From the IMG/VR virus record IMGVR_UViG_2851966386_000003, positions 1 through 49,389 of that record: a DNA stretch of 49,389 nt. One strand, given 5' to 3'. Within the stretch, counting starts at the first letter, position 1. Each line of letters begins with the position of its first letter. Origin of the DNA: a virus (lineage: Duplodnaviria; Heunggongvirae; Uroviricota; Caudoviricetes). Under the pieces are notes generated by a model. It was not told the DNA's origin. It worked only from the letters and a program-made list of their open reading frames with translations, and searched no databases. Of this stretch, positions 5,931 through 47,748 are shown piece after piece. A program made the translations under genes and the position numbers.

Positions 5931-6067
5931 GTGATAGCCTCTATTTTGGATGTAAAATCCCCAGGGCCATTGGTAGCGCCCATTCAGGGTGGTCATTGGT
6001 TTTGGTAATTTCCGGTGTAACTTTGGTCGGTGGCACCGGACGTACAGCCCGCTTCGGCGGGTTTACG

Positions 6068-7607: not shown

Positions 7608-8144
7608 ATGCAAACACTTTCCTTTCAACAAAATACCGGAATCACCACCGGCGCACTGATAAAGCGAAATCAGCTGAGAGAGTCAGATCACGACGCTATT
7701 CGCTCTGCTGTTCGCGCCTGGGCAGCAGCTGAAGGGCAGGATGTTGTCTCGGCATACATCATCGATGAGTGGCGACAGCAGGGCGGCGAGGAGATCGCGT
7801 TTCCTGATGATATCAGCCGTGCCCGCCAGAAGCTTTTTCGCTACCTGGACAACCCTGCCGACTCTGAGCGCTATCGCGAGTACGTTCGCCTTCTTACCCC
7901 GGCAATCATGGCCGTTCTTCCACTGGAGTTCCGACATCGTCTTATGCCTCAGGACGATATTTTGTCGCGCCTGTCTTCGGCCATGAAGGAATGCGCAGAA
8001 GCAAAGCAAGCGGTGATGCTGAACGCGCCAGAGCACCAGAAACTGAAGGAGGTGAGCGAGGGAATAGCGTCGCTTTTCAGGCTAATGCCTGAGCAGACAG
8101 GAGCGCTGATGACGATCGTGAGCTCAATGCTCGGCGTGATGTAA
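7608..8144 (+). CDS. CII-like/YdaT-like regulatory protein (putative)
   Basis: 178-aa ORF tightly coupled downstream of cro-like gene; assignment by position and loose resemblance only. Confidence 0.4.
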   Translation: MQTLSFQQNTGITTGALIKRNQLRESDHDAIRSAVRAWAAAEGQDVVSAYIIDEWRQQGGEEIAFPDDISRARQKLFRYLDNPADSERYREYVRLLTPAIMAVLPLEFRHRLMPQDDILSRLSSAMKECAEAKQAVMLNAPEHQKLKEVSEGIASLFRLMPEQTGALMTIVSSMLGVM

Positions 8145-12347: not shown

Positions 12348-12629
12348 ATGTTAGTAGATTATCTTTTGATTGGACTTAAGCGTCATGGAGAGATAAAACA
12401 AGTCAAGCATAAGGCTGGAGATATGCTTGAGTCGTCACTGGCTTTTTATCCTGCAAATAATTACAACCTTGAGCAGCCAAATTGCGTTTATGATGTTAAG
12501 GTAATTCACCACCGAGGGCATCGTTATGCTATTGCTATTGCATGCGATGTAAATGCTTCAGAAATTAATTCCTTGGTTGAATCCACAAAAATGAACCCCA
12601 TCCCCGATGGTGTAATCGGGGAAATCTGA
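12348..12629 (+). CDS. Hypothetical protein, AT-rich cargo gene
   Basis: ORF 12342..12629; ATG 12348 preceded by GGGAGTGG; composition visibly more AT-rich than flanking phage genes. Confidence 0.45.
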   Translation: MLVDYLLIGLKRHGEIKQVKHKAGDMLESSLAFYPANNYNLEQPNCVYDVKVIHHRGHRYAIAIACDVNASEINSLVESTKMNPIPDGVIGEI

Positions 12630-12806
12630 TGTTGGAATCAAAGGAGTTTGTCATAGATTGATGGAATGAATGTGGACGTACTTACATCATCTAGACCTGA
12701 TATAAGAGATGGTTTAGGCTGTGATAAACTCTAATGCGAACAAACGATCTAGTTACCCTGCGTTACATCACTATGGCCTGCCTGATCGAAAAAATAAGGA
12801 GGGGGT

Positions 12807-13295
12807 GTGTCAAATTTTCTTTCTTTTATTGGGGTGCTTGTATCAATAGCTAGCTGTTATTATGCATACAAAGCATTCACATCTGCTAAAGAAATATCCT
12901 TTCCGGAAAAAAAGCCTCGTGAAAATATGTGTGTTATTAGATTTTTCTCGAAAGAAGCTAAGGAATTTGAAGGTTTTATAAACAAAAATAAACATAAAAA
13001 AGTGTATTTGAATATTGAGTTTGAAGGAAGTGAATTTGAAATCAATGAGGATGGTGATTCCCGCTGGTTGGTTGTCTGGACTGATACCTTTCAGGAAGTC
13101 CCTAAAGGTGAAAAGCTTGACACTTCAAACTGTAACGGGTATCAATTGACTATCATTCCTCATGAGGATGGGTTTGGTAATTTTCACTGGTTTCGTGGAG
13201 CTTATCAACTATCGGGGCATTTCTATATTGATGGATATAGTGGGCCTTATCAGGGTCTAATGAGTGCTGTTATCTCTGCTGCCAAAACCATATAA
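12807..13295 (+). CDS. Membrane-anchored hypothetical protein, AT-rich cargo gene
   Basis: 162-aa ORF, GTG start 5 nt after AGGAGG; N-terminal TM helix (FLSFIGVLVSIASCYYAY). Confidence 0.5.
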   Translation: MSNFLSFIGVLVSIASCYYAYKAFTSAKEISFPEKKPRENMCVIRFFSKEAKEFEGFINKNKHKKVYLNIEFEGSEFEINEDGDSRWLVVWTDTFQEVPKGEKLDTSNCNGYQLTIIPHEDGFGNFHWFRGAYQLSGHFYIDGYSGPYQGLMSAVISAAKTI

Positions 13296-13380
13296 GCAGT
13301 TTTGATTTTTTTTCATCATTCATAATCAGTACGTCAGCCTGAACAACTAACATTTTTTATCCAGCGCCAAGTGAGGACAC

Positions 13381-13608
13381 ATGGCGCACAAAGTAAAAAA
13401 ACACTCGGATTATAGATTTGTATGCAATAACCCTTCTGATCGTGATGATTGTTCAGGTTGTTGTAGTGAATGCAGTATTTTCTGCGTGGGGCTTGGGCTT
13501 CTACGGCTATCTGATGAAGTCCTGACGATTTTCGCGGGATGCTCAATGCCTCATATCTGTGGTCTTGTTTACTGCGTTATCCAATCTGTTTTCCTGGCAA
13601 AAAAATAA
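13381..13608 (+). CDS. Small Cys-rich hydrophobic protein
   Basis: 75-aa ORF with GAGGA SD; followed by hairpin terminator. Confidence 0.3.
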   Translation: MAHKVKKHSDYRFVCNNPSDRDDCSGCCSECSIFCVGLGLLRLSDEVLTIFAGCSMPHICGLVYCVIQSVFLAKK

Positions 13609-13637
13609 AAGCCTTCTCTGCGGAGAGGGCTTTTTTA
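13607..13637 (+). terminator. Rho-independent terminator
   Basis: gccttctc tgcg gagagggc stem-loop followed by tttttt. Confidence 0.6.
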
Positions 13638-13696
13638 TAGTTGATTAAAATGAAAATCTACGCGGATCGGGGTTCTCACGGCGGTACATAATTGAC

Positions 13697-13834
13697 ATGT
13701 ATTTCTGCAGTGTGAAGTGCGCTAAAGACAAGCAGGTTGCGCGTTGTGGTAATGCGGTTCCTCCGCCTTTTGCTGAGGCGCTGGTGAGTGCTAATTTTCC
13801 GGAGATGTGCCTGAAAAAAGACATTGCAGCATGA
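13697..13834 (+). CDS. Small Cys-containing ORF (45 aa) between two terminators
   Basis: Manual translation MYFCSVKCAKDKQVARCGNAVPPPFAEALVSANFPEMCLKKDIAA; stop abuts terminator; no clear SD. Confidence 0.25.
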   Translation: MYFCSVKCAKDKQVARCGNAVPPPFAEALVSANFPEMCLKKDIAA

Positions 13835-16795: not shown

Positions 16796-17422
16796 ATGGC
16801 GTTAAAAGATATTTTTGTGCGAACCGAACCTCACAGACGGCATTATGGTGTTGCATTGTTTATCGGGCTTATTTCTGGGGTGGTTTCAGCATTTGTTAAA
16901 TGGGGTGCAGAAGTACCATTACCACCGCGTAGTCCTGTCGATATGTTTACCAGTGCCTGTGGACCAGAGTCATTAATTCGAGCTGCCGGGCAGATTGATT
17001 GTTCCAGAAACTTCCTTAACCCTCCTTATATTTTTCTGCGTGATTGGTTAGGGCTGGCCGATCCAAATGCGGCTGTCTATACCTTTGCCGGACATGTGTT
17101 TAACTGGGTAGGTGTAACGCATATCATATTCTCCATCGTGTTTGCGGTTGGGTATTGTGTAGTTGCCGAGGTGTTTCCAAAAATCAAGCTGTGGCAGGGT
17201 TTACTTGCAGGTGCACTCGCACAACTGTTTGTCCATATGATTTCGTTTCCGCTTATGGGCCTAACCCCACCGTTGATTGAGCTTCCATGGTATGAAAACG
17301 TTTCTGAAATATTTGGTCACCTGGTGTGGTTCTGGTCAATTGAGATAATTCGCCGGGATCTGAGAAACAGAATTACGCACGAACCGGATGCTGAAGTTTC
17401 TCTGAATTCAGCATTCAGATAA
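16796..17422 (+). CDS. yagU: YagU-family inner membrane protein (DUF1440)
   Basis: 208-aa product near-identical over long stretches to E. coli YagU (from memory). Confidence 0.85.
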
Positions 17423-18020: not shown

Positions 18021-18332
18021 ATGGCAAAGCATATGCAAGACAAAGAGAGCATGGCCGGAATCACCTGGCTGGCTCTGCTGATCATTGCTGGTTGGGGCGG
18101 CCTTGTCCGATTCCTGATGGATGTGAAGCAGGGCAAAGCAAAATGGAGCTGGATAAATGCCTTTGCGCAGATAGTGGTCTCTGCTTTCACTGGCGTCATT
18201 GGTGGGCTAATCAGCATTGAAAGTGGGCTGAGTATTTACATGATACTGGCCACTGCCGGTGTCAGTGGTGCTATGGGATCCGTAGCGCTTACGTATTTCT
18301 GGGAACGAATTACCGGAGTGAAAGCACAATGA
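18021..18332 (+). CDS. Holin
   Basis: 103-aa product with TM segments and charged C-terminus, possible dual start (MAKHM); GGAGGTG SD; directly upstream of endolysin with ATGA overlap. Confidence 0.7.
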   Translation: MAKHMQDKESMAGITWLALLIIAGWGGLVRFLMDVKQGKAKWSWINAFAQIVVSAFTGVIGGLISIESGLSIYMILATAGVSGAMGSVALTYFWERITGVKAQ

Positions 18333-18868
18333 CAGCAGACCAGATTATTGAAGGCATCCTGGGAAAAGAAGGTGGGTATGTCGATCACCCTTCTGACAAA
18401 GGCGGACCAACCCGCTGGGGCATCACGCAGACCACAGCTCGAGCACATGGTTACACCGGTGATATGAGAAACCTGCCCAGGGAAACAGCAAAGCAAATTC
18501 TGCTCAGCGATTACTGGACCGGCCCCCGATTCGATCAGGTGGCAAGTTTATCTACGTTACTGGCAGATGAGCTTTGCGACACTGGTGTGAACATGGGGCC
18601 AAATATTGCCAGTAAGTTTTTCCAGCGCTGGCTCACTGCCCTTAACATGCGCGGGAAGTTGTATCCCGATCTGATCCCGGATGGAGCCATTGGCCCCCGA
18701 ACCATCACCGCGCTTAAGGGATATCTTTCTGCCCGCGGGAAAGAGGGGGAACAGGTTCTGTTGCGTGCGCTGAACTGCAGCCAGGGTGCCAGATACCTCG
18801 AACTGGCGGAGGGCCGCGAAGCCAACGAGGATTTTCTCTACGGCTGGGTTAAGGAGCGTGTCCTGTGA
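18329..18868 (+). CDS. Endolysin, GH108 N-acetylmuramidase with peptidoglycan-binding domain
   Basis: N-terminal GH108 signature (EGGYVDHPSDKGGPTRWGIT). Confidence 0.85.
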   Translation: MTADQIIEGILGKEGGYVDHPSDKGGPTRWGITQTTARAHGYTGDMRNLPRETAKQILLSDYWTGPRFDQVASLSTLLADELCDTGVNMGPNIASKFFQRWLTALNMRGKLYPDLIPDGAIGPRTITALKGYLSARGKEGEQVLLRALNCSQGARYLELAEGREANEDFLYGWVKERVL

Positions 18869-19212
18869 AGATGATCATTTTCGCTTTGCTCGTGCTGGTG
18901 GCTGTGCTCGTTCTGTTACTGCTGCGCAAATATACCCGGCTGGAGTTCGTTGCCCATGCCAGCCTGCTGCTGAAAACGTGGTCTGTAAAGCTGGGGGCTA
19001 TCGGTGCGCTGGTTGGCATGTGGGTGCAGTCGTTCCCGGATGCTGCGCTGCACGCCTGGGCGATGCTGCCGCCGGACATTAAAAACATTTTGCCTTCAAA
19101 CATCGTGGCACTGATTAGCCCTGCGCTGGTGGTGCTGGCGGTGCTTTCGCAATACGTACGCCAGCCAGCATTGAAAGCTAAGGCCGACAAACTGAAGGAG
19201 CCGCAGCAATGA
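18865..19212 (+). CDS. Lysis-associated membrane protein (possible antiholin/LysA-like)
   Basis: 115-aa product with two hydrophobic helices; lies between endolysin and spanins. Confidence 0.45.
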   Translation: MKMIIFALLVLVAVLVLLLLRKYTRLEFVAHASLLLKTWSVKLGAIGALVGMWVQSFPDAALHAWAMLPPDIKNILPSNIVALISPALVVLAVLSQYVRQPALKAKADKLKEPQQ

Positions 19213-19620: not shown

Positions 19621-19824
19621 GGGGAAATGCTCCAGTAAAACAGCGCGAATGCCAAACGTGCAGCGGTTATTAGCGGCGATGATGTGACAGGAACTCAAGG
19701 GCACGGGCGCAGAGCACTGCGAGAGTGTGGTTGTGTAATCAGGTCATGGATCTTGTGTATAGACGTTCTCTGCGACACCAGGGTGACTTAGGCCTTCTTA
19801 CTGGAAGGCGGTAGTTAGAAAGCA

Positions 19825-19853
19825 GGGGTAGTGCCGGTTGACTACCCCTTTTG
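19825..19853 (+). terminator. Rho-independent terminator after lysis cassette
   Basis: ggggtag tgccggttga ctacccc followed by ttttgtg. Confidence 0.65.
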
Positions 19854-19871
19854 TGCAGAATTGGGTAAAAG

Positions 19872-19991
19872 TTAATACCTTTTTTTAAAAGTATTTTTAT
19901 ATTTCTTCGTTTCTCGCAAGTATGAAACCAGTGAACCCACTGCAACTAAAAGAAGAACTACAGCTAACGCTATCATCAGTATGGTTGTCAT
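19872..19991 (-). CDS. Small hydrophobic protein (39 aa), below ORF-track cutoff; type I toxin-like architecture
   Basis: Manual minus-strand translation MTTILMIALAVVLLLVAVGSLVSYLRETKKYKNTFKKRY; AGGAGGG SD 9 nt upstream; one TM helix plus basic tail. Confidence 0.4.
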   Translation of the reverse strand: MTTILMIALAVVLLLVAVGSLVSYLRETKKYKNTFKKRY

Positions 19992-20244
19992 GTGAGTTAA
20001 CCCTCCTAGGGACCATGGATATTATGGTTCGCATGAGGGGTAGTGTGGGATTTAAGTGAGAAAATTCCTAACTGGAATTTTTTCTTAATTTGAAACCTGA
20101 TATGAAACTTTATTGTTGGTTTTGTAATGATTCAATATGAAATGATTAATTATTGTCTGCCAGGATATACAGTTTTCCGAAAGAGGTGTTTTTACTGGTT
20201 ACATCGGATTGACTATGCACTTATCGCATAGCTAATGTAGATGC

Positions 20245-20351
20245 GTGGTGAATCCCCCTGTGCGGTGGGGCGACCAGCCAGGTTTTCTCTTTGAGCACAC
20301 ACGCAGGTCTGTTGGCTGGGGCAGACTTACCGGGAGGCACCCGGCACCACA
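20245..20351 (+). repeat. Copy 2 of ~108-nt structured repeat element
   Basis: gtggtgaatccccctgtgcggtggggcgaccagcc...ggctggggca...ccgggaggcacccggcaccaca; possible hairpin terminator at 20371-20397. Confidence 0.6.
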
Positions 20352-20544
20352 ACATACTGCATAACCCCATAAAGGCCTTCCATTACGGTAGGCCTTTTCT
20401 CTTCTGGTTGTATCTAATACTGTGGGCAGGTCAGCTGGCTTATGCAGGACAGATTATTTTTTCTTATTGAATGCCGCTTCTGGTGTGCTTATATTCTACC
20501 TAAAAATGGGTAGGTGTGTTGTGATTAGAAAATGCTATGCAAGA

Positions 20545-20904
20545 ATGTCTGACCCAGCATCAAATGACAAGCTGACACTGGAAATGCTTGTAACTGACGG
20601 TGGGCGTAAGATTTTTATCTGGGATTTTGATAAAGGGGTGGCAATTTTCTCTGAGGGTATAACAGGTAAGCAGTCTAAATACATAGTGCAAGGTGAAAAG
20701 CATGCAGGGCATATCAATCTTATCAGAGATAATACGATTGAGCGCACTATTTATGGGGTTAAGGAGCTCACCTGTGGAAATGGTGATTCCGGTAAATCCT
20801 CTCCTGTGTTTTGCTCATTGTGCGAGGGGCAGATACTCATAATCGAATGCCAAAAGGCTTTTATAAGAAAACCATTAAGGCTTGATGAACTCACCTTTGA
20901 ATAG
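20545..20904 (+). CDS. Hypothetical protein, AT-rich moron (start uncertain)
   Basis: ORF 20422..20904; weak SD; AT-rich. Confidence 0.3.
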   Translation: MSDPASNDKLTLEMLVTDGGRKIFIWDFDKGVAIFSEGITGKQSKYIVQGEKHAGHINLIRDNTIERTIYGVKELTCGNGDSGKSSPVFCSLCEGQILIIECQKAFIRKPLRLDELTFE

Positions 20905-21500
20905 AACTACTTACGATACATTCCTCATATGTTCGAAGGATATAACATCTCTCAGGTATCCTGCTTCTGGATGCCGGGAATGTGTACCGCTGGTGGGCTG
21001 GATTCTTGGAGCCTTTGCCCAGCAGTTTCAGGTGATAAAAAACCCCGTGGAGTAAATCCGACAAATTGACGGGGCGCTGCAGAGGCAGCCAATGTCGGAG
21101 TTTAGTCAGATTTCGAGGTGTTTTTCTACTGGTTTGAGAAAAAATGGATGGTCTGACACTACAGGAATTGGCTCATCCCTGAGCTCACGGGTAGAACAGT
21201 AGACTTTGTCATGGCAGAGCAAAGTCATAAGTAAGTGTAGAATGTGTTTCTGATTTAACAAGCGTAGCGAGTGTATGCTTCATGGATTGTACGTCTGTAA
21301 CTTTCATAATATTTCTGCCATTTCAAAATTAAGATACTAGGTAAAACCTTAGGGAATTTAGAGGGTAAGAGAAGCTGTGAACAAAAAAATCTCCTCGCGA
21401 AGCAATGTTTTTCACTTTAACGAAATATATTGTTTGCAATGTGGGTTTTTTAGTTCATCATGTATGCTACATTGAGTTCTTATAAAATGAGCTGCTAATT

Positions 21501-21707
21501 ATGACTGAGTGCAAACTTCCACAACTTCCAGAGTATTATCGATATGGTACTGAACAAATTAACAAGTTGCCTGGGAGTGGGGATGTTTTTCCTCCTGCGG
21601 GTAGTATAATAAAGTCAGTAAGTTTAAATGAAGGTGTATTTGTTTGTGTTCCGGTGCAGCGTTATATACACGGGTTGAATATTTGGGTTGTAGTTGAATC
21701 TTCTTGA
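21501..21707 (+). CDS. Hypothetical small protein (weak)
   Basis: 68-aa ORF in AT-rich region; weak SD. Confidence 0.25.
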   Translation: MTECKLPQLPEYYRYGTEQINKLPGSGDVFPPAGSIIKSVSLNEGVFVCVPVQRYIHGLNIWVVVESS

Positions 21708-21829
21708 TAATGATTTTTGTTTGGTAAAAGTGATTTTTCGTTGGTTTGGTGGTTTCTATTTATTATAAATTCGCTGTTGGAATTTAAAATTAGCATCATT
21801 GCAATGCTTTCAAACACCGTAGAAGGATT

Positions 21830-22024
21830 ATGATGCTAGTGCAAAATAATATTTATAATAATTCAGAGTCATATGCTATTCTTTTGTTTAGTATGTGGCC
21901 TGTCCTTATTGTACTTCTTGTCGTGATATCTTGCGCCTTTTACGGTGTATTGATGCATAAAACTGCAATTTGTTGTTTTCTGTCAGCTATGTTCCTTGGT
22001 GTCGCAGGCTGGTTTTATGGATGA
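21830..22024 (+). CDS. Small membrane protein
   Basis: 64-aa ORF with two hydrophobic helices; AAGGA SD. Confidence 0.3.
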   Translation: MMLVQNNIYNNSESYAILLFSMWPVLIVLLVVISCAFYGVLMHKTAICCFLSAMFLGVAGWFYG

Positions 22025-22178
22025 TCACCATTAGCTCTAATATGAGTCACTTTTTAGTATAAAGTCAGGGTGTCATTACTTTACCTGGCTTGTAGCGTTG
22101 GTTCCCTAAAGTTTGACGATAAAAGGCCCTGTTAATACAGGGCCTTTCTGTATGTATTATTTATCAAAGAGGTAAGAC

Positions 22179-22424
22179 ATGTCAGAGATCACCGCATCTG
22201 AGCAAATCCGCCTGGATATTATCAAGAAAGTGAATTACGACACTGCAGCGGCGAAGTTAGCCATTGACTGGGTAGGCGACAGCTATCTGAAGTCTGAGCT
22301 ATTCGCTGACTCTTTCGATCGTGTTTTCACGGAAAGTGAGATTGTCTCGAAGACCCGTAAGGCAATCCAGGAAGCGACCGAAGCGCTGGCGCTGTTTGAT
22401 ACTGCCGCTGAGCAGGTCAGCTAA
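22179..22424 (+). CDS. Hypothetical protein
   Basis: 81-aa ORF with AAGAGG SD ~6 nt upstream. Confidence 0.45.
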   Translation: MSEITASEQIRLDIIKKVNYDTAAAKLAIDWVGDSYLKSELFADSFDRVFTESEIVSKTRKAIQEATEALALFDTAAEQVS

Positions 22425-31660: not shown

Positions 31661-32833
31661 GTGAGCTCAGGTGCAAAAGTAGTAGCCGCGTTTATTCGTG
31701 AGACAACGCCAGGTATCACGCCAACAGCAGGGGCGTGGAACCTGCTGCGGCGTTCTTCATTTGGTCTGAAACCAACGCAGAACACCAACGACAATGACGA
31801 AATCGCGGGTGACCGCATGGCGCAGGGTGTTTCACGCGGCACAGTGGATGTCGGGGGTGATGTCGGCACGCGGTTTCGCTGGAATCAGCATGACGATTTT
31901 CTTGCCAGCTGTTTCGGCGCCGAATGGGTAAATAACGTGCTGACGATGGGTAATGGTCGTATTACGTTCTCCGTGGCGACCTTTGCCAGTGATGTGGGGA
32001 TCGCCCAGATTGCCCGCGGTTGCCAGGTTGGTACCTTCCAGATGGAAATCCCGGCCGATGGTGATATCACTGCAACCATTACGTTTGCAGGGCTGGACTG
32101 GGAGACGAAGGGGGACGATACCAGCTATTTCACCACGCCGGTTGATTTGGCGGGGGAGCTGCGTTACTCCTTCAAGGAGGTCACGAATATCCGGCTGAAT
32201 GGTGTTGATGGCGGGACAGGTTTCTGCGTCGACACTTTTAACATCCAGTTCAACAACAATATGCAGACTCAGCGCTGCATCGGTACCGGTTCGGCGTTCG
32301 CCGGCGCAAACATTCCGACAACCTTTACCCCGTCAGGTCAAATCACGCTGTCATGGTCAAAGGCTGCATGGGAGGTTTACAAAAAAACGTTCACCGGCGA
32401 AACGGTGCCGTTTAGCTTCACCCTGGAGAATGCTGAAGGCGCCTATACCTTCGATTTCCCGGAAGTGCAGATCTCCGGCGACTGGCCGGATGCGGGGAGC
32501 ACTGACATTGTTCAGGTTCAGCTGGATATCACCGCGGCCAATACTCCGCCAACTATCACCCGCGTCCCCAAAGTGCCGGCGACGGCAATCAGTGTTGCGC
32601 CAGCCACTTCAACTGGAGCAGTGGGATCTACTGTGACGTTAACCGCCACGCTTACGCCAGCTGATTCAACTGATACCGTCCAGTGGACGTCATCGGATCC
32701 GACTATCGCCAGCGTGGTTTCTACCGGGCAGAAAACAGCGAAAGCCACACGTAACGCAGCCGGCACTGCAACAATCACCGGTAAGGCCCGCACCTTTACG
32801 GCAACGTCTGAAATCACCGTTACCGCGCCTTAA
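31661..32833 (+). CDS. Major tail (tube) protein with C-terminal Ig-like domain
   Basis: 390-aa product; C-terminal ~90 aa Thr/Ala/Ser-rich Ig-like region; followed by chaperone G/GT. Confidence 0.7.
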   Translation: MSSGAKVVAAFIRETTPGITPTAGAWNLLRRSSFGLKPTQNTNDNDEIAGDRMAQGVSRGTVDVGGDVGTRFRWNQHDDFLASCFGAEWVNNVLTMGNGRITFSVATFASDVGIAQIARGCQVGTFQMEIPADGDITATITFAGLDWETKGDDTSYFTTPVDLAGELRYSFKEVTNIRLNGVDGGTGFCVDTFNIQFNNNMQTQRCIGTGSAFAGANIPTTFTPSGQITLSWSKAAWEVYKKTFTGETVPFSFTLENAEGAYTFDFPEVQISGDWPDAGSTDIVQVQLDITAANTPPTITRVPKVPATAISVAPATSTGAVGSTVTLTATLTPADSTDTVQWTSSDPTIASVVSTGQKTAKATRNAAGTATITGKARTFTATSEITVTAP

Positions 32834-32886
32834 TTTACCTGGCCCGTTCTGCAGTCATCGCGGATCGGGCTTTTTTGGGAGTCTTT

Positions 32887-33369
32887 ATGCTGATTATTTC
32901 TTCTCAAATTGATTTGAACGGAGAACGCTGGTTTTTCCCTTACAAAAAGCCGGCAGGCAGTAAAAAGAAATTCACGCCGGAAGACGAGGCGCTATTTAAA
33001 CTCCGTCTGCTGGTGGCCAGTAGCGAGAATCCGCAATACCGCTCACGCAATGCGCTGGTGCGGCGCCATATCGACAAAATGGACGCGAGCTACCAGGTCG
33101 GTACGGATGCTTTCGATCTCGCCAGTGTGGGAGAGATTGACTCGGTTGATGATCTTCTCATCGACAATTGCGCGCGCTTTCTTCTGAGAGACTGGGAAGG
33201 CGTGGGGGAGCTGGTGGATGGTACGGAGACGGCGGTAACTTACACGCCGGAGCGTGGTGTTGCGTTACTGAAGCAAAACCCCTCTCTGTACTGGCTTATT
33301 CTGGCTGAGGCGGCGGACATTGCTCAGGGTAAGGAGCAGCAGACTCAGGAAACCGTAAAAAAGCCATAG
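32887..33369 (+). CDS. Tail assembly chaperone (gpG-like)
   Basis: Position between major tail and tape measure; ends at slippery AAAAAAG; GGGAG SD. Confidence 0.65.
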   Translation: MLIISSQIDLNGERWFFPYKKPAGSKKKFTPEDEALFKLRLLVASSENPQYRSRNALVRRHIDKMDASYQVGTDAFDLASVGEIDSVDDLLIDNCARFLLRDWEGVGELVDGTETAVTYTPERGVALLKQNPSLYWLILAEAADIAQGKEQQTQETVKKP

Positions 33370-33704
33370 AGGCCCAAAAGTGGCTAAAGGAATTCGCCGG
33401 CGAGCAGGGCGAGAAAGCAAAGTGGCGCAGGGAGAAACTAAATCTCTCGCCCATTCCGGAGCCTGAAATCGATGCAGTCACTGGGGAGATCCTCAACGCT
33501 TACGCCATGATATCGCGCGGCAGGAAATATGCTGGCATGGCCGGAGTGCCGCTCCCTCTATCCCTGAACGATATCGAGCTTTACCTGGCATCGCGCACCA
33601 TCCTGATCGACCGCATTGAGTTTGACGCAGCGATACTGGCCCTCGATGATGCCTGGAGGGATGAGTGGGCCGAAGAGCAGAAAAGACAGGCGAAAGTGAA
33701 GTAG
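33363..33704 (+). CDS. -1 frame extension of tail assembly chaperone (T portion of G-T fusion)
   Basis: Slippery heptamer A-AAA-AAG at 33357-33363; -1 frame open without stop from 33363 to 33704. Confidence 0.6.
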   Translation, partial: AIEAQKWLKEFAGEQGEKAKWRREKLNLSPIPEPEIDAVTGEILNAYAMISRGRKYAGMAGVPLPLSLNDIELYLASRTILIDRIEFDAAILALDDAWRDEWAEEQKRQAKVK

Positions 33705-33771
33705 TCATATCATTGTCTCCATCTATTCCTGTGCTAACCTGTGTGCAAATGTTAATGATGGGGATGGGGAT

Positions 33772-34134
33772 GTGGAACCGCTTTTAGGTTTTATGCTTTT
33801 TGGGCTAGCAGTTATTGTTGTAGCAGTTATTGCTGCAAAACGAAATGGGATAGGTATTGCGTTCCTTTACCTTATTGGTATGTGCGCTATAGGCTTCGGC
33901 TTGGTCGTTTTAGCATCAAATATCACAAATGGAAACGGCGTTATCGCTGGTTTTACTGCATTTATTGCGCCGATTCTTGGTCTTCTTATTGTCTTATCAT
34001 CGTCTACATCTGAACGCCGAGCAGTGCTTAATGGTGAGTCTGGTGAGTATAAAAAATGTCCTTTCTGCGCCGAGCCTATCCGCAAAGAGGCCATTAAATG
34101 TAAACACTGTGGAAGTGATATTGAACAGACCTGA
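33772..34134 (+). CDS. Membrane protein with C-terminal zinc-ribbon (moron)
   Basis: Three hydrophobic helices then CPFCAEPI...CKHCGSD; own terminator; start uncertain (GTG 33772 or ATG 33793). Confidence 0.5.
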   Translation: MEPLLGFMLFGLAVIVVAVIAAKRNGIGIAFLYLIGMCAIGFGLVVLASNITNGNGVIAGFTAFIAPILGLLIVLSSSTSERRAVLNGESGEYKKCPFCAEPIRKEAIKCKHCGSDIEQT

Positions 34135-34189
34135 GTATTACCAGTGAACCCGTTTCGATAATATAACTTTCAAGATATTGTATTCGTAA

Positions 34190-34217
34190 AAAAACCTCGC
34201 TACGGCGGGGTTTTTTA
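34190..34217 (+). terminator. Rho-independent terminator
   Basis: cctcgc tacg gcgggg followed by ttttttatt. Confidence 0.6.
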
Positions 34218-34235
34218 TTGCCCGGAGATAGCTAA

Positions 34236-37115
34236 ATGACAGAACAAACCTCCCGCCTGGCCATTGTGATTGATAGCTCCGGGGCAGAAAAGCAGGCTGA
34301 CAATCTCGCAACTGCACTGGTAAAAATGACGCAGGCAGGCGAACGTGCTGTTACCAGTGCAGGGAAAGTGACAAAAGCTACTGATGAAGAAAAACAGTCT
34401 CTTTCTGAACTCTTAGATCGAATTGACCCGGTAAACGCAGCTCTGAATAAACTGGATAAACAACAGCAAGATCTTGCGAAATTCAAATCAAAGGGGATGG
34501 TAGATATCGATACATTCGATCTTTATTCAAAGAAAATCGAGGAAACACGAAACAGGCTAACTGGATTTCGCGACGACCTTGGCAAAACCGGACAATCTGC
34601 CGCACAGACTGCCTTTGCCATGCGCATGATCCCAGCGCAGATGACTGACATTATTGTCGGCTTATCTACGGGGCAGTCGCCGTTTATGGTGCTTATGCAG
34701 CAGGGCGGGCAGTTGAAAGATATGTTCGGCGGTATTGGCCCCGCGATTAAAGGTGTTGGCGGGTATGTGCTGGGGTTGATTAATCCTGTCACTCTGGCTG
34801 CCGCGGCTGTCGGTGTTCTTGGGCTGGCCTATTACAAAGGCTCTCAGGAGCAAGGCGAGTTCTATAAGTCATTGACCCTTAACGGTAATCTGGTTGGTAA
34901 AACCACCGGGCAACTAGCAGATATGGCCGCTCGGGTTTCAGTAGTTGCCAACTCAACTACTGGCGTGACCGCAGCCACACTTAACCAGATAGTTTCATCC
35001 GGGAAAGTGGCTGCAGAGTCATTGGAACGAGTAACAACTGCCGTGGTTGAAATCAGTGAAGCCACAGGCATCGCCACTGAAAAGCTGGTGGGTGATTTCA
35101 ACGACATTGCTGCTGACCCGGTTGCGGCCATTACAAAACTTAACGACCAGTACCACTTTCTGACACTGGCAACCTACAACCAGATTAAAGCACTGCAGGA
35201 TGAAGGTAATCAGCAGGATGCTGCACGGGTGGCTACTGATGCTTACGCCAATGCCATGCAGCAGCGTGCGAACGATATTCATCAGAATTTGGGGATTCTT
35301 GAACGTGCTTGGGACTCGCTTGCTAAAACGGCTAAAGGAGCATGGGATGCCATGCTTGATATAGGTCGCGAGCAAACCGGCACCGAGCGGATCTCTCAAA
35401 TTCGTAAGGAATTAGATTGGATAGATAAGGCTGCAGGCGGGAAGCTATTTTTTGGTGGAAGAAAGGCTGAGCTCGAAGATGAGCTAAATAATCTGCAATC
35501 TCAAATCACAACAGAAGGCGTTTTAACTGAAATAATCAGTAGTCATGACAAAGCTGAACAGCAAAGAATTAAAACGCAGCAGGAAGCAGATCGCGTTAAC
35601 CAGCAATATCTGAGCAATGCGGATAAGCGCAATAAAGCCATTAAGCAGCAAAGCGAGTTCCTGAAGGCAGGCGCAATTACTGCAGAGCAATATTCAAAAA
35701 ATGTTTCTCGTATTAACGAGATGTACAAAGATCCGAAACCACCCAAGACGCCAAAGAGTAAAGCATATACCGAGGACGCAGCAACCCGGCTGCTTGATCA
35801 GATAAACCAGCAGACTGCTGCTATGCAGTCCCAGCTGGATGCCAGTGACAAGCTTAACAGCTCGACACAGGCGCGGATTAAGTTCGAACAGCAAATTGCT
35901 GACCTCAAGTCTAAAACGCAGCTCACCGCTGACCAGAAGTCGATCCTTTCCCGTTCAGATGAAATCCTCCAGGCATATAAGCAGCAGGAGGCACTGCAAA
36001 ATTCCGTAAAAACCCTGGACGATTACCGCAAGATGCAGGAACAGGTAAAGACGAAAGATAAGCGGACCAACGATCTGCTTAAAACCCGTCTTGAACTGCT
36101 GGAGAAGGCCAAAGCAACCGGGCAACTTAAACCCGGTGAATATGCAAAAACGCGGGCAGATATTTATCAAAACACCGATATGCAACTGCCCTCGACGGTT
36201 CGTAATGTTGTAGGAAACCTGACACCCACAGGAGGGCGACTCTCTGGAACTTTTGAGGGGATGCAGGGGCAAATCAACGAATATGATCAGGCTCAGCAAG
36301 AGCTCCAGCGCTGGCTGGCAGCTCAGGAGGAAGCTTATGCGAAGGCCGGTGAAATAACTGCCGAGGGTGAGGCCAGAATGACCTCTATTCGTCAACGTGC
36401 GGCGGATGCAAATCAGGTCATAGAGGCTCAGAAAAACACCATCATATCTGCGGCCACGCAGTCCTTGTTTGATAGCACCGCCGAAATCATGCGAACGGGG
36501 TTTGGTGAGCAATCGGCAATCTACAAGGTCGCTTTTGCTGCGAGCAAGGCATTCGCTATCGCGGACTCGATGGTGAAAATCCAGCAGGCTATAGCAAGCG
36601 GTGCAGTAAGCGCGCCTTATCCGGCCAACATCATCGCTATGGCCTCAATCGCTGCGCAGACTGCCAGTATCGTCTCAAATATCCAGGCTGTTTCAGGAGT
36701 TGGCTTCGCCTCCGGCGGTTACACCGGCCCCGGTGGTAAGTATCAGCCCGCGGGTATTGTTCACAAAGGTGAGTACGTCTTCGACCAGGCTTCAACGAAC
36801 CGGATCGGCGTGTCTCAGCTTGAGGCACTTCGAAATGGCCAACCGCTTGATGCAACTCTGGGGCGTACAGGGTTTGGTACTGGTGTTCAGAACGTTAACA
36901 GCGATAACCGTAGGCAAACAACTGTACACGCGCCGATTAATCAGGAGTTTCATCTCCAGGGTATTACTCCGGAGCAGTTGAGCGCTACACTCAATCAGAA
37001 TAATCGACTGCTTTCCAGGCAGTTAAAAGGTGAACTCACAAAGGAGGTTACCATGCCACAAGGGGCTTTTGGTAACGCTCTAAAAGGAAACTATACACGA
37101 CACGGTCCTAGGTAA
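34236..37115 (+). CDS. Tail tape measure protein
   Basis: 959-aa coiled-coil-rich product in canonical position after G/GT. Confidence 0.85.
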   Translation: MTEQTSRLAIVIDSSGAEKQADNLATALVKMTQAGERAVTSAGKVTKATDEEKQSLSELLDRIDPVNAALNKLDKQQQDLAKFKSKGMVDIDTFDLYSKKIEETRNRLTGFRDDLGKTGQSAAQTAFAMRMIPAQMTDIIVGLSTGQSPFMVLMQQGGQLKDMFGGIGPAIKGVGGYVLGLINPVTLAAAAVGVLGLAYYKGSQEQGEFYKSLTLNGNLVGKTTGQLADMAARVSVVANSTTGVTAATLNQIVSSGKVAAESLERVTTAVVEISEATGIATEKLVGDFNDIAADPVAAITKLNDQYHFLTLATYNQIKALQDEGNQQDAARVATDAYANAMQQRANDIHQNLGILERAWDSLAKTAKGAWDAMLDIGREQTGTERISQIRKELDWIDKAAGGKLFFGGRKAELEDELNNLQSQITTEGVLTEIISSHDKAEQQRIKTQQEADRVNQQYLSNADKRNKAIKQQSEFLKAGAITAEQYSKNVSRINEMYKDPKPPKTPKSKAYTEDAATRLLDQINQQTAAMQSQLDASDKLNSSTQARIKFEQQIADLKSKTQLTADQKSILSRSDEILQAYKQQEALQNSVKTLDDYRKMQEQVKTKDKRTNDLLKTRLELLEKAKATGQLKPGEYAKTRADIYQNTDMQLPSTVRNVVGNLTPTGGRLSGTFEGMQGQINEYDQAQQELQRWLAAQEEAYAKAGEITAEGEARMTSIRQRAADANQVIEAQKNTIISAATQSLFDSTAEIMRTGFGEQSAIYKVAFAASKAFAIADSMVKIQQAIASGAVSAPYPANIIAMASIAAQTASIVSNIQAVSGVGFASGGYTGPGGKYQPAGIVHKGEYVFDQASTNRIGVSQLEALRNGQPLDATLGRTGFGTGVQNVNSDNRRQTTVHAPINQEFHLQGITPEQLSATLNQNNRLLSRQLKGELTKEVTMPQGAFGNALKGNYTRHGPR

Positions 37116-37198
37116 GCTAAACTGCATTAGCTGAGACTTGATTAGGTAGGTAAGTCTAACAATCTGAGTAGGTGCAAGAAAACACAAGGATCTTATTA

Positions 37199-37534
37199 AT
37201 GGAAGCGTTGTTAACATTTACATTTAAAGACTTTATAGCTTTTATGATTCCTCTTTTTATTGGCGGACTTATCTTCAATAGGAGACGTAAACGTAAGGAG
37301 GTCCGAGTGAAGTTTTCATTTCTTTGGCTTGTTTTGATAGTCGGTGGAATTCTTGAAATATGCGATGATATCTACACAACTTATTCCTATAGGCATAATC
37401 ACTTATATAATAATGATACGCTTACAACCGTGTTTAACTATGATTTTGCAAAAATTGTTTTTTGTGGGGTTTTGATTTTTGTTTCTATTGCGCTTCTTCT
37501 TCAGGAGTTGCTTTTAAATAAGCAGTCACATTGA
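37199..37534 (+). CDS. AT-rich small membrane protein (moron)
   Basis: ATG 37199 eight nt after AAGGA; three hydrophobic helices; followed by ~310-bp AT-rich non-coding tract. Confidence 0.45.
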   Translation: MEALLTFTFKDFIAFMIPLFIGGLIFNRRRKRKEVRVKFSFLWLVLIVGGILEICDDIYTTYSYRHNHLYNNDTLTTVFNYDFAKIVFCGVLIFVSIALLLQELLLNKQSH

Positions 37535-37848
37535 CGAATATTGCCTGTCGGCACATTGCCCTTTTTTATTTTGATATGGGGCTGTGCCGAAACAATGTAA
37601 GCTCAAATTAAAGTCAATAAAATTAGTGTATTGATAATGCTGTGTTTTTGATTTCTTTTAGCTCTTGAGATGAGTTGATAAATATATCGCCTTGTGTGTT
37701 TGTGTCGGTTTAAAAAGATTTTTATCTTCGTTAATCTGAACCAAAAAAATCAGAGTTTTCTTCGATTCCATAGTGCTTTATTCTGAAATGAATACCCTCC
37801 TGAGGTTAATGGTGAAATTTTATTCGAGATACTTTACCGGGAGACTGC

Positions 37849-45210: not shown

Positions 45211-47748
45211 TTACGCAGGTAAGTAGTATTTTTCGCCGTAAATAAGCTTGCACAGACTGAATGCCGCTGCATCTGCGCCAGCCTTGTAACTGACGGTATA
45301 GCCGAGGTCATTCGGGTGGTTGAAATTAGGTGAGTTGAAAAGGGCTGACCATCCGTGTACCTCCACTCCCTGTTTGAACCAGGGGATTTCAGCTTCCAGT
45401 ACAAATGCGGATTTCTTCCGTGCTGTGGCTCGCGCCATGCTGTTATAGAGGCCAAACCGCACATCACCAACAACTTCAATACCACTCCCTGACCAGTCGG
45501 ACTCCACAAATGACCGTGACGGCGGCGGATCGAGTACTTCCTCAATAATGCTGTCCAGATTAATTTGCTGAATAGTGGTATTGATCAGGTCAGAGACCGG
45601 AATATTTTCTGCCACAGTAATAGTGTTACGATCAGCAGAAATGCCGGTAATTGTGTAGTCGCCTGCATTGCTGCCACCGACCCGAAGGATATGGCCTGGA
45701 CGGAGAATCTGGCCGCCCCAGCTGGTCGCTGCATTTCCTGTATCATATGAGAAAGCAGTACTAGAGATAGTATTACTGGCTGAATCAAACGTGAAGTTGC
45801 CCGTAACATTGAAAGTCCTCACAGGCCAGACAACGTTAAGGTTTCCCAGGGTAATGTTTTTGACGGTATTATGTTCAACATTGTTATGCGGCGTGGTACA
45901 AACAATCACGATCGCACCTTTTGCCGTGCACATATCAATAATGTTCTCAAGCTCTGCCTGCTGACGAGGGAAGGTCCTTCCACGATTAAAGTTCCCCACC
46001 GGAGCATCATTCATCCCCCCTACAATCAGAACGAAATCAGGCCAGTCGTCAGGGTTTTCACTGGTGAAATACGGTGAGTTTTGTAGCTGTGCTGGAAACT
46101 GCTGTAATGCCTGGCCAATTACGCACTGATTGTCGTCGATAAACTCAAATTCCCCATACGGTGATAAATATTTTTTCATCGCCTCAATAAATAGCGTATT
46201 CGGCGCAAAAGGCGCCCCCGGAACCCCGCCACCTGTTGAGCCTGCAGCTAATCCTACCGACGAACCCGTTGAAGTAAAAATAAGCCGTTTTTTTGTGACT
46301 GTTCTTACGCCATTACTAAACGAAATTTTACCAAATGGCGAAGTGTCGGCCGCTGTACCATCACCAATGAGTTTTTTGCGCAATTTAATATAGGGGTCAG
46401 TGACAGCACCCTGCAGAGTGGTGACATCGCTTTTGAGGTTCAGAATGTCTGTGGTCGGATCGCCTGAGAGCAAAAGTTTGAAATTGTTAACGGGAGAACC
46501 ACGATACTGAACCGTAACAGGTTTCGCTGCCTGCAGTTCGCCGCCCGTAAGCGCTGTGTTCGCCCCCTTCAGCAGATTGCGCGTTACCGAATTTCCGTAC
46601 AGGTCAGTTATAACAAGCGTCGTTGCGCCGGTATTAGCCACCACGGGTTCAAATGTTATCTGAGTACCGTCACCAAGCAGCCCGGGTATGGTTACGGACA
46701 CAGCGTTAGGGCTTGAGGAGTCACTTGTTACCGTCCCTTTGGTATACGCATTGAGAACCCGTGCCCTGTCACCTGGGTAGGTCAGCAAACGAAAATCACT
46801 GGCGGCCGCATTATACATGAGCAGATACGGGTATCCTGAGACAAGGTCTCCGACAGCCAGAGCAGTACCGCCAGCCTGTTTAATCGTACGTGCCGTCCAA
46901 CCGTTCAGCGACAGCGTCGGTGTTCTCGTGGTATTGGTTGCGCTGGGTGTAAAAACAAACGCGCGACCAGTGACCAGAACCTGTGATGATGTGGTGTTGG
47001 CAGTGTTTCCTGTATACGCGTCCGATGTCATTGTTACTGCCGAAACAATCGCAACGGAGTTCAACTCAACATTCAGCAGGCGTGCATTCAGCTCTGCCGC
47101 CACTGGGCCGGATGCGACAAGGACGAAATTGTTGGCGGTTCCTGTGCGGAACTCCATCAGTACCGGTTGATTCAGCAAAAGCTCATTACCAGCGAGCGCT
47201 GCGAAATTTTGTTTCTGGATTGCGCGAGTAACGGTATTCCCCTTCGCGTCTGTCACGGTCACACTGACCGCGCCGGTATTCAGGATGGGGGAAAGGAAAT
47301 AAATAAGACTGCTATCAACCAGCAGACCGGGAATAGTGATAGCGATAGTATTTGCCGCATTGCTGCTGACTGCCGTTGCAGCCTGATAGCCAGTTGGTAA
47401 CGCAGACAGCATTTTTCTCCCAGTGGCAACCAGCATACCGCCAACATTCATATACTCAATAGCCAGATATGCGTCATCAGGGCTACGCACATAGGTGCTG
47501 CTGCCTTCTGGAATATTCGCGATATCCGCCTGCGCCGCCGCCAGCGTCTGATACTGCTTACTGAGCGGGATCAGGTTCTGCCTGACCTCATCGTTTTTCG
47601 CCATCATCTGGCGCCAGGTATCGAGCGGTTCACCGCCGCGGTCGTTAACCGTACCTGCCGGACCGTTAACCAGCTCGTCAGCGCGCTTGACGTTATCCAG
47701 GAAAATTTCAGGCGTCGTCGTTCCCAAAGGCGGGTTAAGTTCGGCCAT
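45211..47748 (-). CDS. Tail fibre/spike protein 2 (alternative fibre)
   Basis: N-terminal ~110 aa paralogous to fibre 1 (MAELNPPLGTTTPEIFLDNVKRADELVNGP... vs MAFNPELGSTSPAVLLDNAERLDKLVNGP...); unrelated C-terminus; 5' UTR is inverted copy of fibre 1 5' UTR. Confidence 0.65.
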   Translation of the reverse strand: MAELNPPLGTTTPEIFLDNVKRADELVNGPAGTVNDRGGEPLDTWRQMMAKNDEVRQNLIPLSKQYQTLAAAQADIANIPEGSSTYVRSPDDAYLAIEYMNVGGMLVATGRKMLSALPTGYQAATAVSSNAANTIAITIPGLLVDSSLIYFLSPILNTGAVSVTVTDAKGNTVTRAIQKQNFAALAGNELLLNQPVLMEFRTGTANNFVLVASGPVAAELNARLLNVELNSVAIVSAVTMTSDAYTGNTANTTSSQVLVTGRAFVFTPSATNTTRTPTLSLNGWTARTIKQAGGTALAVGDLVSGYPYLLMYNAAASDFRLLTYPGDRARVLNAYTKGTVTSDSSSPNAVSVTIPGLLGDGTQITFEPVVANTGATTLVITDLYGNSVTRNLLKGANTALTGGELQAAKPVTVQYRGSPVNNFKLLLSGDPTTDILNLKSDVTTLQGAVTDPYIKLRKKLIGDGTAADTSPFGKISFSNGVRTVTKKRLIFTSTGSSVGLAAGSTGGGVPGAPFAPNTLFIEAMKKYLSPYGEFEFIDDNQCVIGQALQQFPAQLQNSPYFTSENPDDWPDFVLIVGGMNDAPVGNFNRGRTFPRQQAELENIIDMCTAKGAIVIVCTTPHNNVEHNTVKNITLGNLNVVWPVRTFNVTGNFTFDSASNTISSTAFSYDTGNAATSWGGQILRPGHILRVGGSNAGDYTITGISADRNTITVAENIPVSDLINTTIQQINLDSIIEEVLDPPPSRSFVESDWSGSGIEVVGDVRFGLYNSMARATARKKSAFVLEAEIPWFKQGVEVHGWSALFNSPNFNHPNDLGYTVSYKAGADAAAFSLCKLIYGEKYYLPA

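Follow-up and report, generated by a model that had tools for sequence, protein, structure and literature searches.

Why should a small gene for a membrane protein, with a base composition unlike that of its neighbours, lie among the tail genes of a temperate phage, directly in front of the gene for the tape measure protein (TMP)? The question is raised by the IMG/VR virus record IMGVR_UViG_2851966386_000003, a tailed phage (Caudoviricetes), which was analysed over its whole length of 49,389 nucleotides (nt); this stretch is called the window in the following. The gene, here called the cargo gene, encodes a protein of 120 amino acids (aa) and is situated between the gene of the tail assembly chaperone and the TMP gene. 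A previous sequence-only reading had taken it to be a moron and not a tail structural gene. The comparisons made here agree with this, and the cargo element is very probably a moron. As to the function of its product, we tentatively propose a role in superinfection exclusion, and weigh this against four other explanations below.

The cargo gene and its slot

33772 to 34134, plus strand: cargo gene, GTG start, 120 aa; DUF2545 three-helix domain and C-terminal zinc ribbon

Judged by its substitution pattern, the open reading frame (ORF) that had been picked out between the chaperone and the tape measure is a real gene under purifying selection. Against homologues of 55–80% identity the proportion of changed sites was 0.11–0.29 per nonsynonymous site (pN) and 0.64–0.85 per synonymous site (pS), and the corresponding rate ratio (dN/dS) was about 0.1 wherever it could be computed. 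A protein database search gave 472 homologues at E≤1e-3, which together with the purifying selection rule out a spurious ORF. The start codon is backed by the N-terminus MEPxxGF common to the homologues, and these open at the aligned codon, either ATG or GTG, behind a Shine-Dalgarno-like GGGGAT or GGAG. The hosts were Klebsiella, Citrobacter, Raoultella, Serratia, Yersinia, Photorhabdus, Xenorhabdus, Providencia, Proteus and Hafnia, and also the Burkholderiales Acidovorax, Hydrogenophaga, Rhodoferax and Burkholderia. In an exhaustive profile search, full-length members formed about 60 clusters at 50% identity, and about 13,000 proteins had only the zinc ribbon in common. The GC content of the cargo gene is 0.42 and that of its third codon positions (GC3) 0.31, as compared to 0.53–0.56 and 0.59–0.68 in the tube, G and T genes of the same tail module. 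The composition is foreign, and the gene was very probably acquired horizontally.

The comparative synteny that the earlier reading had called for was carried out as a census of 80 IMG/VR loci with a chaperone at least 96% identical to that of the window; in 71 of these, the boundaries of the region between chaperone and TMP, here called the slot, could be set. The cargo gene with its DUF2545 domain and ribbon was present in only 7 of the 71, swapped for unrelated ORFs elsewhere, which is far from the virion component conserved in all relatives that the earlier reading had named as speaking against a moron. The slots measured 518–2564 nt; their ORFs fell into at least 20 clusters, which were combined in 22 architectures. 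A 143-aa ribbon protein occurred in 33 slots and a PLDc_N-like two-helix ribbon protein in 10, while 21 slots had no ribbon protein; in slots with such a protein, its gene was without exception the one next to the TMP. None of the 71 slots was empty, the minimum being 518 nt, which implies that this is a replaceable cargo slot and not a simple presence/absence insertion. The left breakpoint is the start codon and the right one a conserved terminator. An alignment of the leaders showed that the variability begins at the cargo start codon, and the megablast match to phage 5 LV-2017 stops at position 33774 of the window. The closest relatives in GenBank illustrate the exchange:

ST16-OXA48phi5.1: 132-aa exported protein
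5 LV-2017: 117-aa exported protein
ST846phi9.2 and ST974phi18.2: 118-aa lipoprotein and a 143-aa protein with the order transmembrane (TM)-TM-ribbon-TM
E. coli strain 167: the 120-aa cargo gene, as in the window

The slot proteins of the first two, both Klebsiella phages, are unrelated to the cargo protein.

Thus, the cargo gene is extra DNA within the tail module, present in only 7 of the 71 slots and replaced by unrelated ORFs in others, its composition is unlike that of the surrounding genes, and it has a terminator, though one that is shared by the whole slot. Together with the homologues in other places and the promoter-like motif upstream, described below, this is what carries the assignment as a moron.

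The remaining slot cargo consisted of three lipoprotein families, secreted proteins, a Doc-like toxin and an insertion sequence, so that the genes accompanying the ribbon proteins are mostly envelope-targeted (lipoproteins and secreted proteins). Lipoproteins were frequent just upstream of TMP genes, with families of 118, 110 and 227 aa (locus L002, 2991–3347; L255, 2602–2982; census loci L174–L253); an E. coli prophage has a BamE-like lipoprotein in this place. As candidates, these lipoproteins may mask receptors or act in exclusion in the manner of Llp/Cor. Some slots, in which ORF cluster 10 occurs with cluster 3 (L175, L249), encode a 161-aa protein with the Fic/Doc-like motif HPFANANKRT beside an ORF of 153–160 aa on the opposite strand, and one slot of the census holds the transposase of an insertion sequence.

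Signals on both sides of the slot

33705 to 33771, plus strand: conserved 67-nt leader, containing the predicted promoter and the Shine-Dalgarno sequence GGGGATGGGGA; common to unrelated cargo ORFs
33713 to 33740, plus strand: predicted sigma-70 promoter of the cargo gene; −35 TTGTCT (33713–33718), 16-nt spacer, extended −10 TG (33732–33733), −10 TAACCT (33735–33740)
34188 to 34217, plus strand: intrinsic terminator; A7 (34188–34194), stem CCTCGC (34195–34200)/GCGGGG (34205–34210), loop TACG, T6 (34211–34216) followed by A
34220 to 34238, plus strand: TMP translation-initiation region, GCCCGGAGA...ATG, with invariant CxGGAG columns in the alignment

Comparison of upstream regions gives good grounds for placing a putative extended −10 promoter ahead of the cargo gene. 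When 10 regions from different contexts were aligned, the T, G, T, A and T of TGnTAnnnT were invariant (TGcTAACCT at 33732–33740 in the window), and most of them also had a TTG-type −35 located 16–17 nt upstream. The alignment took in copies from Serratia that follow the TMP and whose flanks are otherwise unrelated, and the motif is retained although the bases around it have diverged. Of 44 distinct upstream sequences, 24 had the motif ending 24–38 nt ahead of the start codon, a count that is partly inflated by shared ancestry; it is conserved in Klebsiella-type, Serratia and high-GC phage contexts. The scored bin of 25–45 nt held 21 of them, the other three being at −24; shuffled sequences gave a mean of 1.1 in the same bin and a maximum of 5 in 1000 trials.

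The terminator that had been ascribed to the cargo gene is there, a hairpin with its T-run at 34188–34217, and only its ascription needs to be changed, as it is not peculiar to this gene but common to all cargo of the slot. The T6 ends 20 nt before the ATG of the TMP (34236). In near-identical copies the local hairpin has about −12.8 kcal/mol, and it is this hairpin alone that stands out; the fold of the whole 106-nt intergenic region was not unusual (z=−0.95). The terminator was missing from the output of a generic scan for promoters and terminators, probably because pairing of the A-run with the T-run consumes the free tail. Every cargo type was followed by a hairpin, then TTTTTTAT(T)GCCCGGAGA, and then the TMP start. 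The stems vary (CCTCGC/GCGGGG, CCCGC/GCGGG, GACCGCC/GGCGGTT, CCCGGC/GCCGGG and GCCCCGC/GCGGGGC), and each is self-complementary with −9 to −15 kcal/mol. The loop lengths differ, and the MAFFT alignment of the terminators is out of structural register. The position of the hairpin is kept from Klebsiella phages of about 50% GC to phages of 62% GC whose cargo protein is 38–47% identical. Since it is conserved whatever the cargo is, the terminator is a property of the slot and of the 5' region of the TMP gene, and not of this ORF alone. The module of hairpin, TTTTTTAT(T)GCCCGGAGA and TMP start, which was seen at 34188–34238 of the window and at the loci L001–L005, L113–L142 and L257, may do more than terminate transcription, for example set the level or the translation of the TMP mRNA.

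The cargo protein

33781 to 34017, plus strand: DUF2545 (YfdY-like) membrane domain, aa 4–82; from the PF10810 match, hydropathy and the helices of the AlphaFold2 model
34048 to 34122, plus strand: zinc ribbon, aa 93–117 (KKCPFCAEPIRKEAIKCKHCGSD), PF13248; predicted to be cytoplasmic

The protein has the two parts that were visible in its sequence from the beginning. Hydropathy peaks at aa 4–22, 27–48 and 57–76 correspond to the three hydrophobic helices, and the CPFC...CKHC tail, C96-P-F-C99 ... C110-K-H-C113, matches Zn_ribbon_3 (PF13248) with 28.6 bits as compared to a cut-off of 27. The membrane part scored 30.4 bits with PF10810, where the cut-off is 27.8, and covered positions 2–80 of the 80 in the model. 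The three-helix domain is thus like E. coli YfdY over the full model, and many of the homologues are named "DUF2545 family protein" at NCBI; the match ends at residue 82, before the ribbon, which YfdY lacks. Apart from K23 and R24 in loop 1, lysines and arginines are confined to the C-terminal tail, where there are 8 of them. By the positive-inside rule this predicts that the N-terminus is outside and the C-terminus inside (N-out/C-in), with the ribbon in the cytoplasm.

The zinc ribbon, which falls outside the YfdY-like region, is the best conserved part of the protein. Its four cysteines are invariant in 67 homologues, and the full set of invariant ribbon residues in these sequences is K95, C96, C99, A100, E101, R104, E106, A107, K109, C110, H112 and C113. 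The AlphaFold2 model made from the same 67 homologues had a mean confidence score (pLDDT) of 90.5 and shows helices followed by a small beta knuckle. The modelled ribbon can be superposed on small zinc ribbons at about 1 Å, with E-values that are non-significant. The homology and structure searches that had been asked for earlier gave the DUF2545 and Zn_ribbon_3 domains and no significant relative in fold: Foldseek of the model against PDB and BFVD returned nothing at E≤0.001, the last 25 residues resembling generic small zinc ribbons only, and a sequence-profile search of PDB had no match below E=0.2. NCBIfam gave sub-threshold noise only, and the PHROGs match was to families of unknown function only (phrog_31852). 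In the literature on zinc ribbons together with exclusion or tape measures, and on DUF2545, we found nothing about the cargo family.

The other ribbon proteins of the slot, the 143-aa TM-TM-ribbon-TM protein (phrog_8032) and the PLDc_N-like protein with two TM helices, have a near-identical ribbon, KCP(F/Y)CAE.I..EA.KCKHCGSD, and the same position as the last gene before the terminator. Their anchors are, in contrast, apparently unrelated to that of the cargo protein, some have an extra C-terminal TM helix or a soluble domain, and only the ribbon can be aligned. There are at least three interchangeable anchors with an invariant ribbon, KCPFCAE..R.EA.KCKHCGS. Homologues of about 200 aa (P0033, P0041 and P0046) and a 208-aa ribbon protein of the census carry a soluble C-terminal domain of about 80 residues after the ribbon, and a similar extension was seen on ribbon proteins with a different membrane anchor. 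In sequence comparison this suggests domain shuffling around the ribbon.

Homologues beside other tape measure genes

About 40 of the 52 full-length viral copies are located 42–140 nt upstream of a TMP of the TMP_2 type, down to 38% identity, and zinc-ribbon proteins with other membrane anchors were also found just before TMPs. The adjacency is not bound to one type of tail module. In Serratia aquatilis and S. fonticola the homologue is situated 59–73 nt downstream of a lambda-type TMP, and on the viral contig L124 just before one. In Burkholderia the homologue is beside an integrase, and in Acidovorax among ordinary chromosomal genes in a non-phage context. The adjacency to the TMP is far commoner in this family than for a random moron, and as a pattern of gene order it suggests a TMP-related function. 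Near the homologue of S. aquatilis (L006) there is also a HigB/HigA-like pair.

Gene order and comparison with HK97

31661 to 32833: tail tube gene, preceding the chaperone
32875 to 33369, plus strand: tail assembly chaperone G; TTG start at 32875 in the listed ORF, annotated homologues 160 aa
33357 to 33363, plus strand: slippery heptamer A_AAA_AAG, from inspection of the sequence; the −1 frame opens just upstream
33363 to 33704, plus strand: T-like extension of the chaperone in the −1 frame, about 113 open codons, stop TAG at 33702–33704
34236 to 37115, plus strand: TMP, 959 aa, ATG at 34236; PF06791 (TMP_2, E=3.3e-76) and PF24622

The chaperone sits between the tube gene and the TMP, and a homologue of it carries the domain PF27119 (Phage_YdaY). 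The heptamer indicates a programmed −1 frameshift of the G/GT type, which would give a GT fusion; in the database annotations of the relatives the T part is entered as a separate small ORF.

The layout is the same as in phage HK97, where gp13/gp14 with a −1 frameshift are followed by gene 15 (62 aa, annotated "moron product"), a terminator and the TMP gp16. The HK97 terminator, ACCCGC...GCGGGT with T8, closely resembles that of the window in its hairpin and ends like it about 12–20 nt before the TMP start, and gene 15 and the cargo gene both have an atypical composition. The term moron was first applied to gene 15 (PMC3594210). Its product is expressed from the prophage, is located in the inner membrane and blocks the genome entry of HK97 and HK75; the specificity of the exclusion maps to the tail, and gp15 resembles the chromosomal protein YebO (Juhala 2000 and Cumby 2012, reviewed in PMC3594210). 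The kin of gp15 and of the cargo protein, YebO and YfdY/DUF2545, are in each case a small chromosomal membrane protein of enterobacteria. The two proteins themselves differ, since gp15 has 62 aa, a single TM helix and no zinc ribbon, as compared to 120 aa, three TM helices and a Cys4 ribbon. Prophage expression and exclusion have been demonstrated for gp15, whereas for the cargo protein both are proposed. Pfam gave no YebO match (PF13974) in the cargo protein, while gp15 has one.

Proposed role of the cargo protein

We suggest that the element is a horizontally acquired, self-contained transcription unit, inserted into the late tail operon with the G/GT chaperone on one side and the TMP gene on the other. 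The weak extended −10 sigma-70 promoter at 33713–33740 would give a cargo transcript from the repressed prophage, and the terminator at 34188–34217 would stop it ahead of the TMP gene; late transcription would have to pass through this terminator. The product would enter the inner membrane by its three helices, N-out/C-in, and expose the Cys4 ribbon on the cytoplasmic face. There it could act in superinfection exclusion at the step of DNA entry, interfering, in the way of HK97 gp15, with the TMP/inner-membrane channel of related siphophages as they infect. The geometry is plausible because SNIPE, an N-out/C-in inner-membrane nuclease that cleaves phage DNA during injection, has a cytoplasmic domain that engages the TMP complex (PMC13190303). 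SNIPE is a large protein with DUF4041 and with a nuclease domain of the GIY-YIG type, and the cargo protein has neither a nuclease domain nor homology to it, so it is a conceptual analogue only. Exclusion at DNA entry is favoured because the gene occupies the slot of gp15, because the accompanying cargo is dominated by envelope proteins, and because adjacency to the TMP recurs in at least two unrelated types of tail module. Such recurrence fits selection for linkage of an exclusion factor with the gene that determines sensitivity. Expression in the lysogen and the topology are both inferred. We regard the explanation as a whole, a moron cassette with a likely role in superinfection exclusion, as about equally apt to hold and to fail, and the exclusion function as possible but somewhat more apt to fail.

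Several observations weigh against this proposal. The promoter is weak by consensus, with 3 of 6 matches in the −10 and 4 of 6 in the −35, and the generic promoter scan did not list it, because the −10 has only these three matches; the count of the motif is, as noted above, partly a result of common descent. A homologue that stands behind a lipoprotein gene (L112, L125) directly follows a hairpin and has no extended −10. At these two loci the hairpin with T5 is located about 20 nt before the start of the ribbon protein, about 60 nt upstream of position 6001. Homology to gp15 had to be rejected, as BLASTP gave no alignment. No solved or annotated structural relative turned up in the PDB profile search or with Foldseek against PDB and BFVD, and the defence models of PADLOC-DB 2.0 gave no match at E≤0.01. 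The chromosomal, non-phage homologues and the relationship to YfdY point to a housekeeping role in the membrane, and the adjacency to the TMP could reflect merely an intergenic site that tolerates insertions.

The explanation that we consider the most serious rival, though still an unlikely one, is that the moron serves the fitness of the host as a YfdY-like small membrane protein that alters the envelope physiology of the lysogen (stress tolerance, biofilm or permeability). The DUF2545/YfdY match is full-length and above the Pfam cut-off, homologues occur in chromosomes outside phages (Acidovorax), and the family includes versions without the zinc ribbon besides the approximately 60 full-length clusters. 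In E. coli, overexpression of yfdY was recovered in a screen for tolerance to hypochlorous acid, and yfdY has been linked to biofilm (PMC8228696). These phenotypes come from overexpression screens only, and a role in envelope fitness leaves unexplained both the adjacency to the TMP in at least two unrelated tail-module types and the ribbon, which is absent from YfdY and yet the best conserved part of the cargo protein. Alternatively, the protein could be a late-expressed accessory of the tail operon, which either keeps progeny from injecting again into lysing cells and debris ("anti-Kronos") or aids the phage's own TMP or DNA at the membrane. Exclusion systems that protect the progeny are a concept cited in PMC13622650, the cargo gene lies within the late operon and has its orientation, the positional linkage to the TMP is strong across 38–98% identity, and some architectures have no recognisable promoter of their own. 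Against this stands that the gene is absent from 64 of the 71 nearest relatives and, because of this absence, is not needed for tail function; the terminator directly after it and the conserved extended −10 before it fit autonomous expression, and its composition is foreign. We find it improbable that the protein is a late accessory of this kind.

A lysis modulator of the holin or antiholin kind is suggested by the size, the three TM helices, the N-out/C-in topology and the charged cytoplasmic C-terminus, all of which resemble class I holins, and Foldseek showed a weak, non-significant likeness to LydA and other holins (TM-score about 0.4–0.46, E about 2–3). The phage has, however, a canonical lysis cassette in another place, with a LydA-type holin (18021–18332), a GH108 endolysin (18329–18868) and a DUF7940 protein (18865–19212); no holin family was matched in Pfam or PHROGs, chromosomal homologues exist, and an invariant Cys4 zinc ribbon is not a feature of holins. 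A class I holin was rejected, the gene being outside the lysis cassette (18021–19212) and without a holin family match, and any holin-like role is very unlikely. That the protein is a structural or assembly component of the tail is harder still to believe. The gene does belong by position to the tail module, the TMP gene being the next one, and many phages keep it there; but unrelated genes replace it in most of the near-identical tail modules, an integral membrane topology is implausible for a part of a siphophage tail, and the foreign GC3, the promoter-like motif and the terminator all set it apart.

Returning to exclusion at DNA entry, it is conceivable, though rather doubtful, that the membrane-anchored zinc-ribbon proteins are a widespread and unrecognised class of TMP-directed exclusion proteins, and that the leader on one side and the module of terminator and TMP ribosome-binding site on the other serve as homology arms for the swapping of cassettes beside the target gene.

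Other regions of the window

The window is a complete temperate phage, with an integrase at 1–1188, a RecE-like gene and the lysis cassette at 18021–19212, and its structural module resembles those of Klebsiella prophages and of one E. coli prophage. A second island of low GC (0.30–0.37) begins directly after the stop of the TMP, at 37116–37848. It contains a 120-aa membrane ORF (37172–37534; phrog_16178) with a weak match to Acyl_transf_3, is absent from the E. coli 167 prophage and present in many relatives, and probably represents a second moron, which flanks the TMP on the opposite side. Two more stretches of low GC (0.35–0.43), one at 12600–13800 in the early region and one at 19800–22200, after the lysis cassette and before the terminase, may hold further cargo. 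A DUF1440 membrane protein (16796–17422) is encoded closely ahead of the holin, the early region encodes a protein with a YdaT_toxin domain (7608–8144), and an 845-aa ORF near the right end (45211–47748, minus strand) has a weak match to GDSL lipase/acylhydrolase.

Implications

The element is of an ordinary kind: it is a moron in the archetypal place for one, and its cargo belongs to an uncharacterised family. What goes beyond the sequence-only reading is the cassette-like slot, the dominance of membrane-anchored ribbon proteins in it, and the recurrent linkage to the TMP. The slot, with its conserved arms and more than 20 alternative cargoes, is a clean natural system for the exchange of cargo in tail operons. 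If the exclusion role is false, the cargo gene is one more uncharacterised moron. If it is true, the cargo protein and its zinc-ribbon relatives would commonly determine the phage resistance of lysogens of Klebsiella, Citrobacter, Serratia and other clinical bacteria, and would have a bearing on the choice of therapeutic phages. A phage phenotype would also be the first functional handle on a ribbon motif that is widespread in bacteria.

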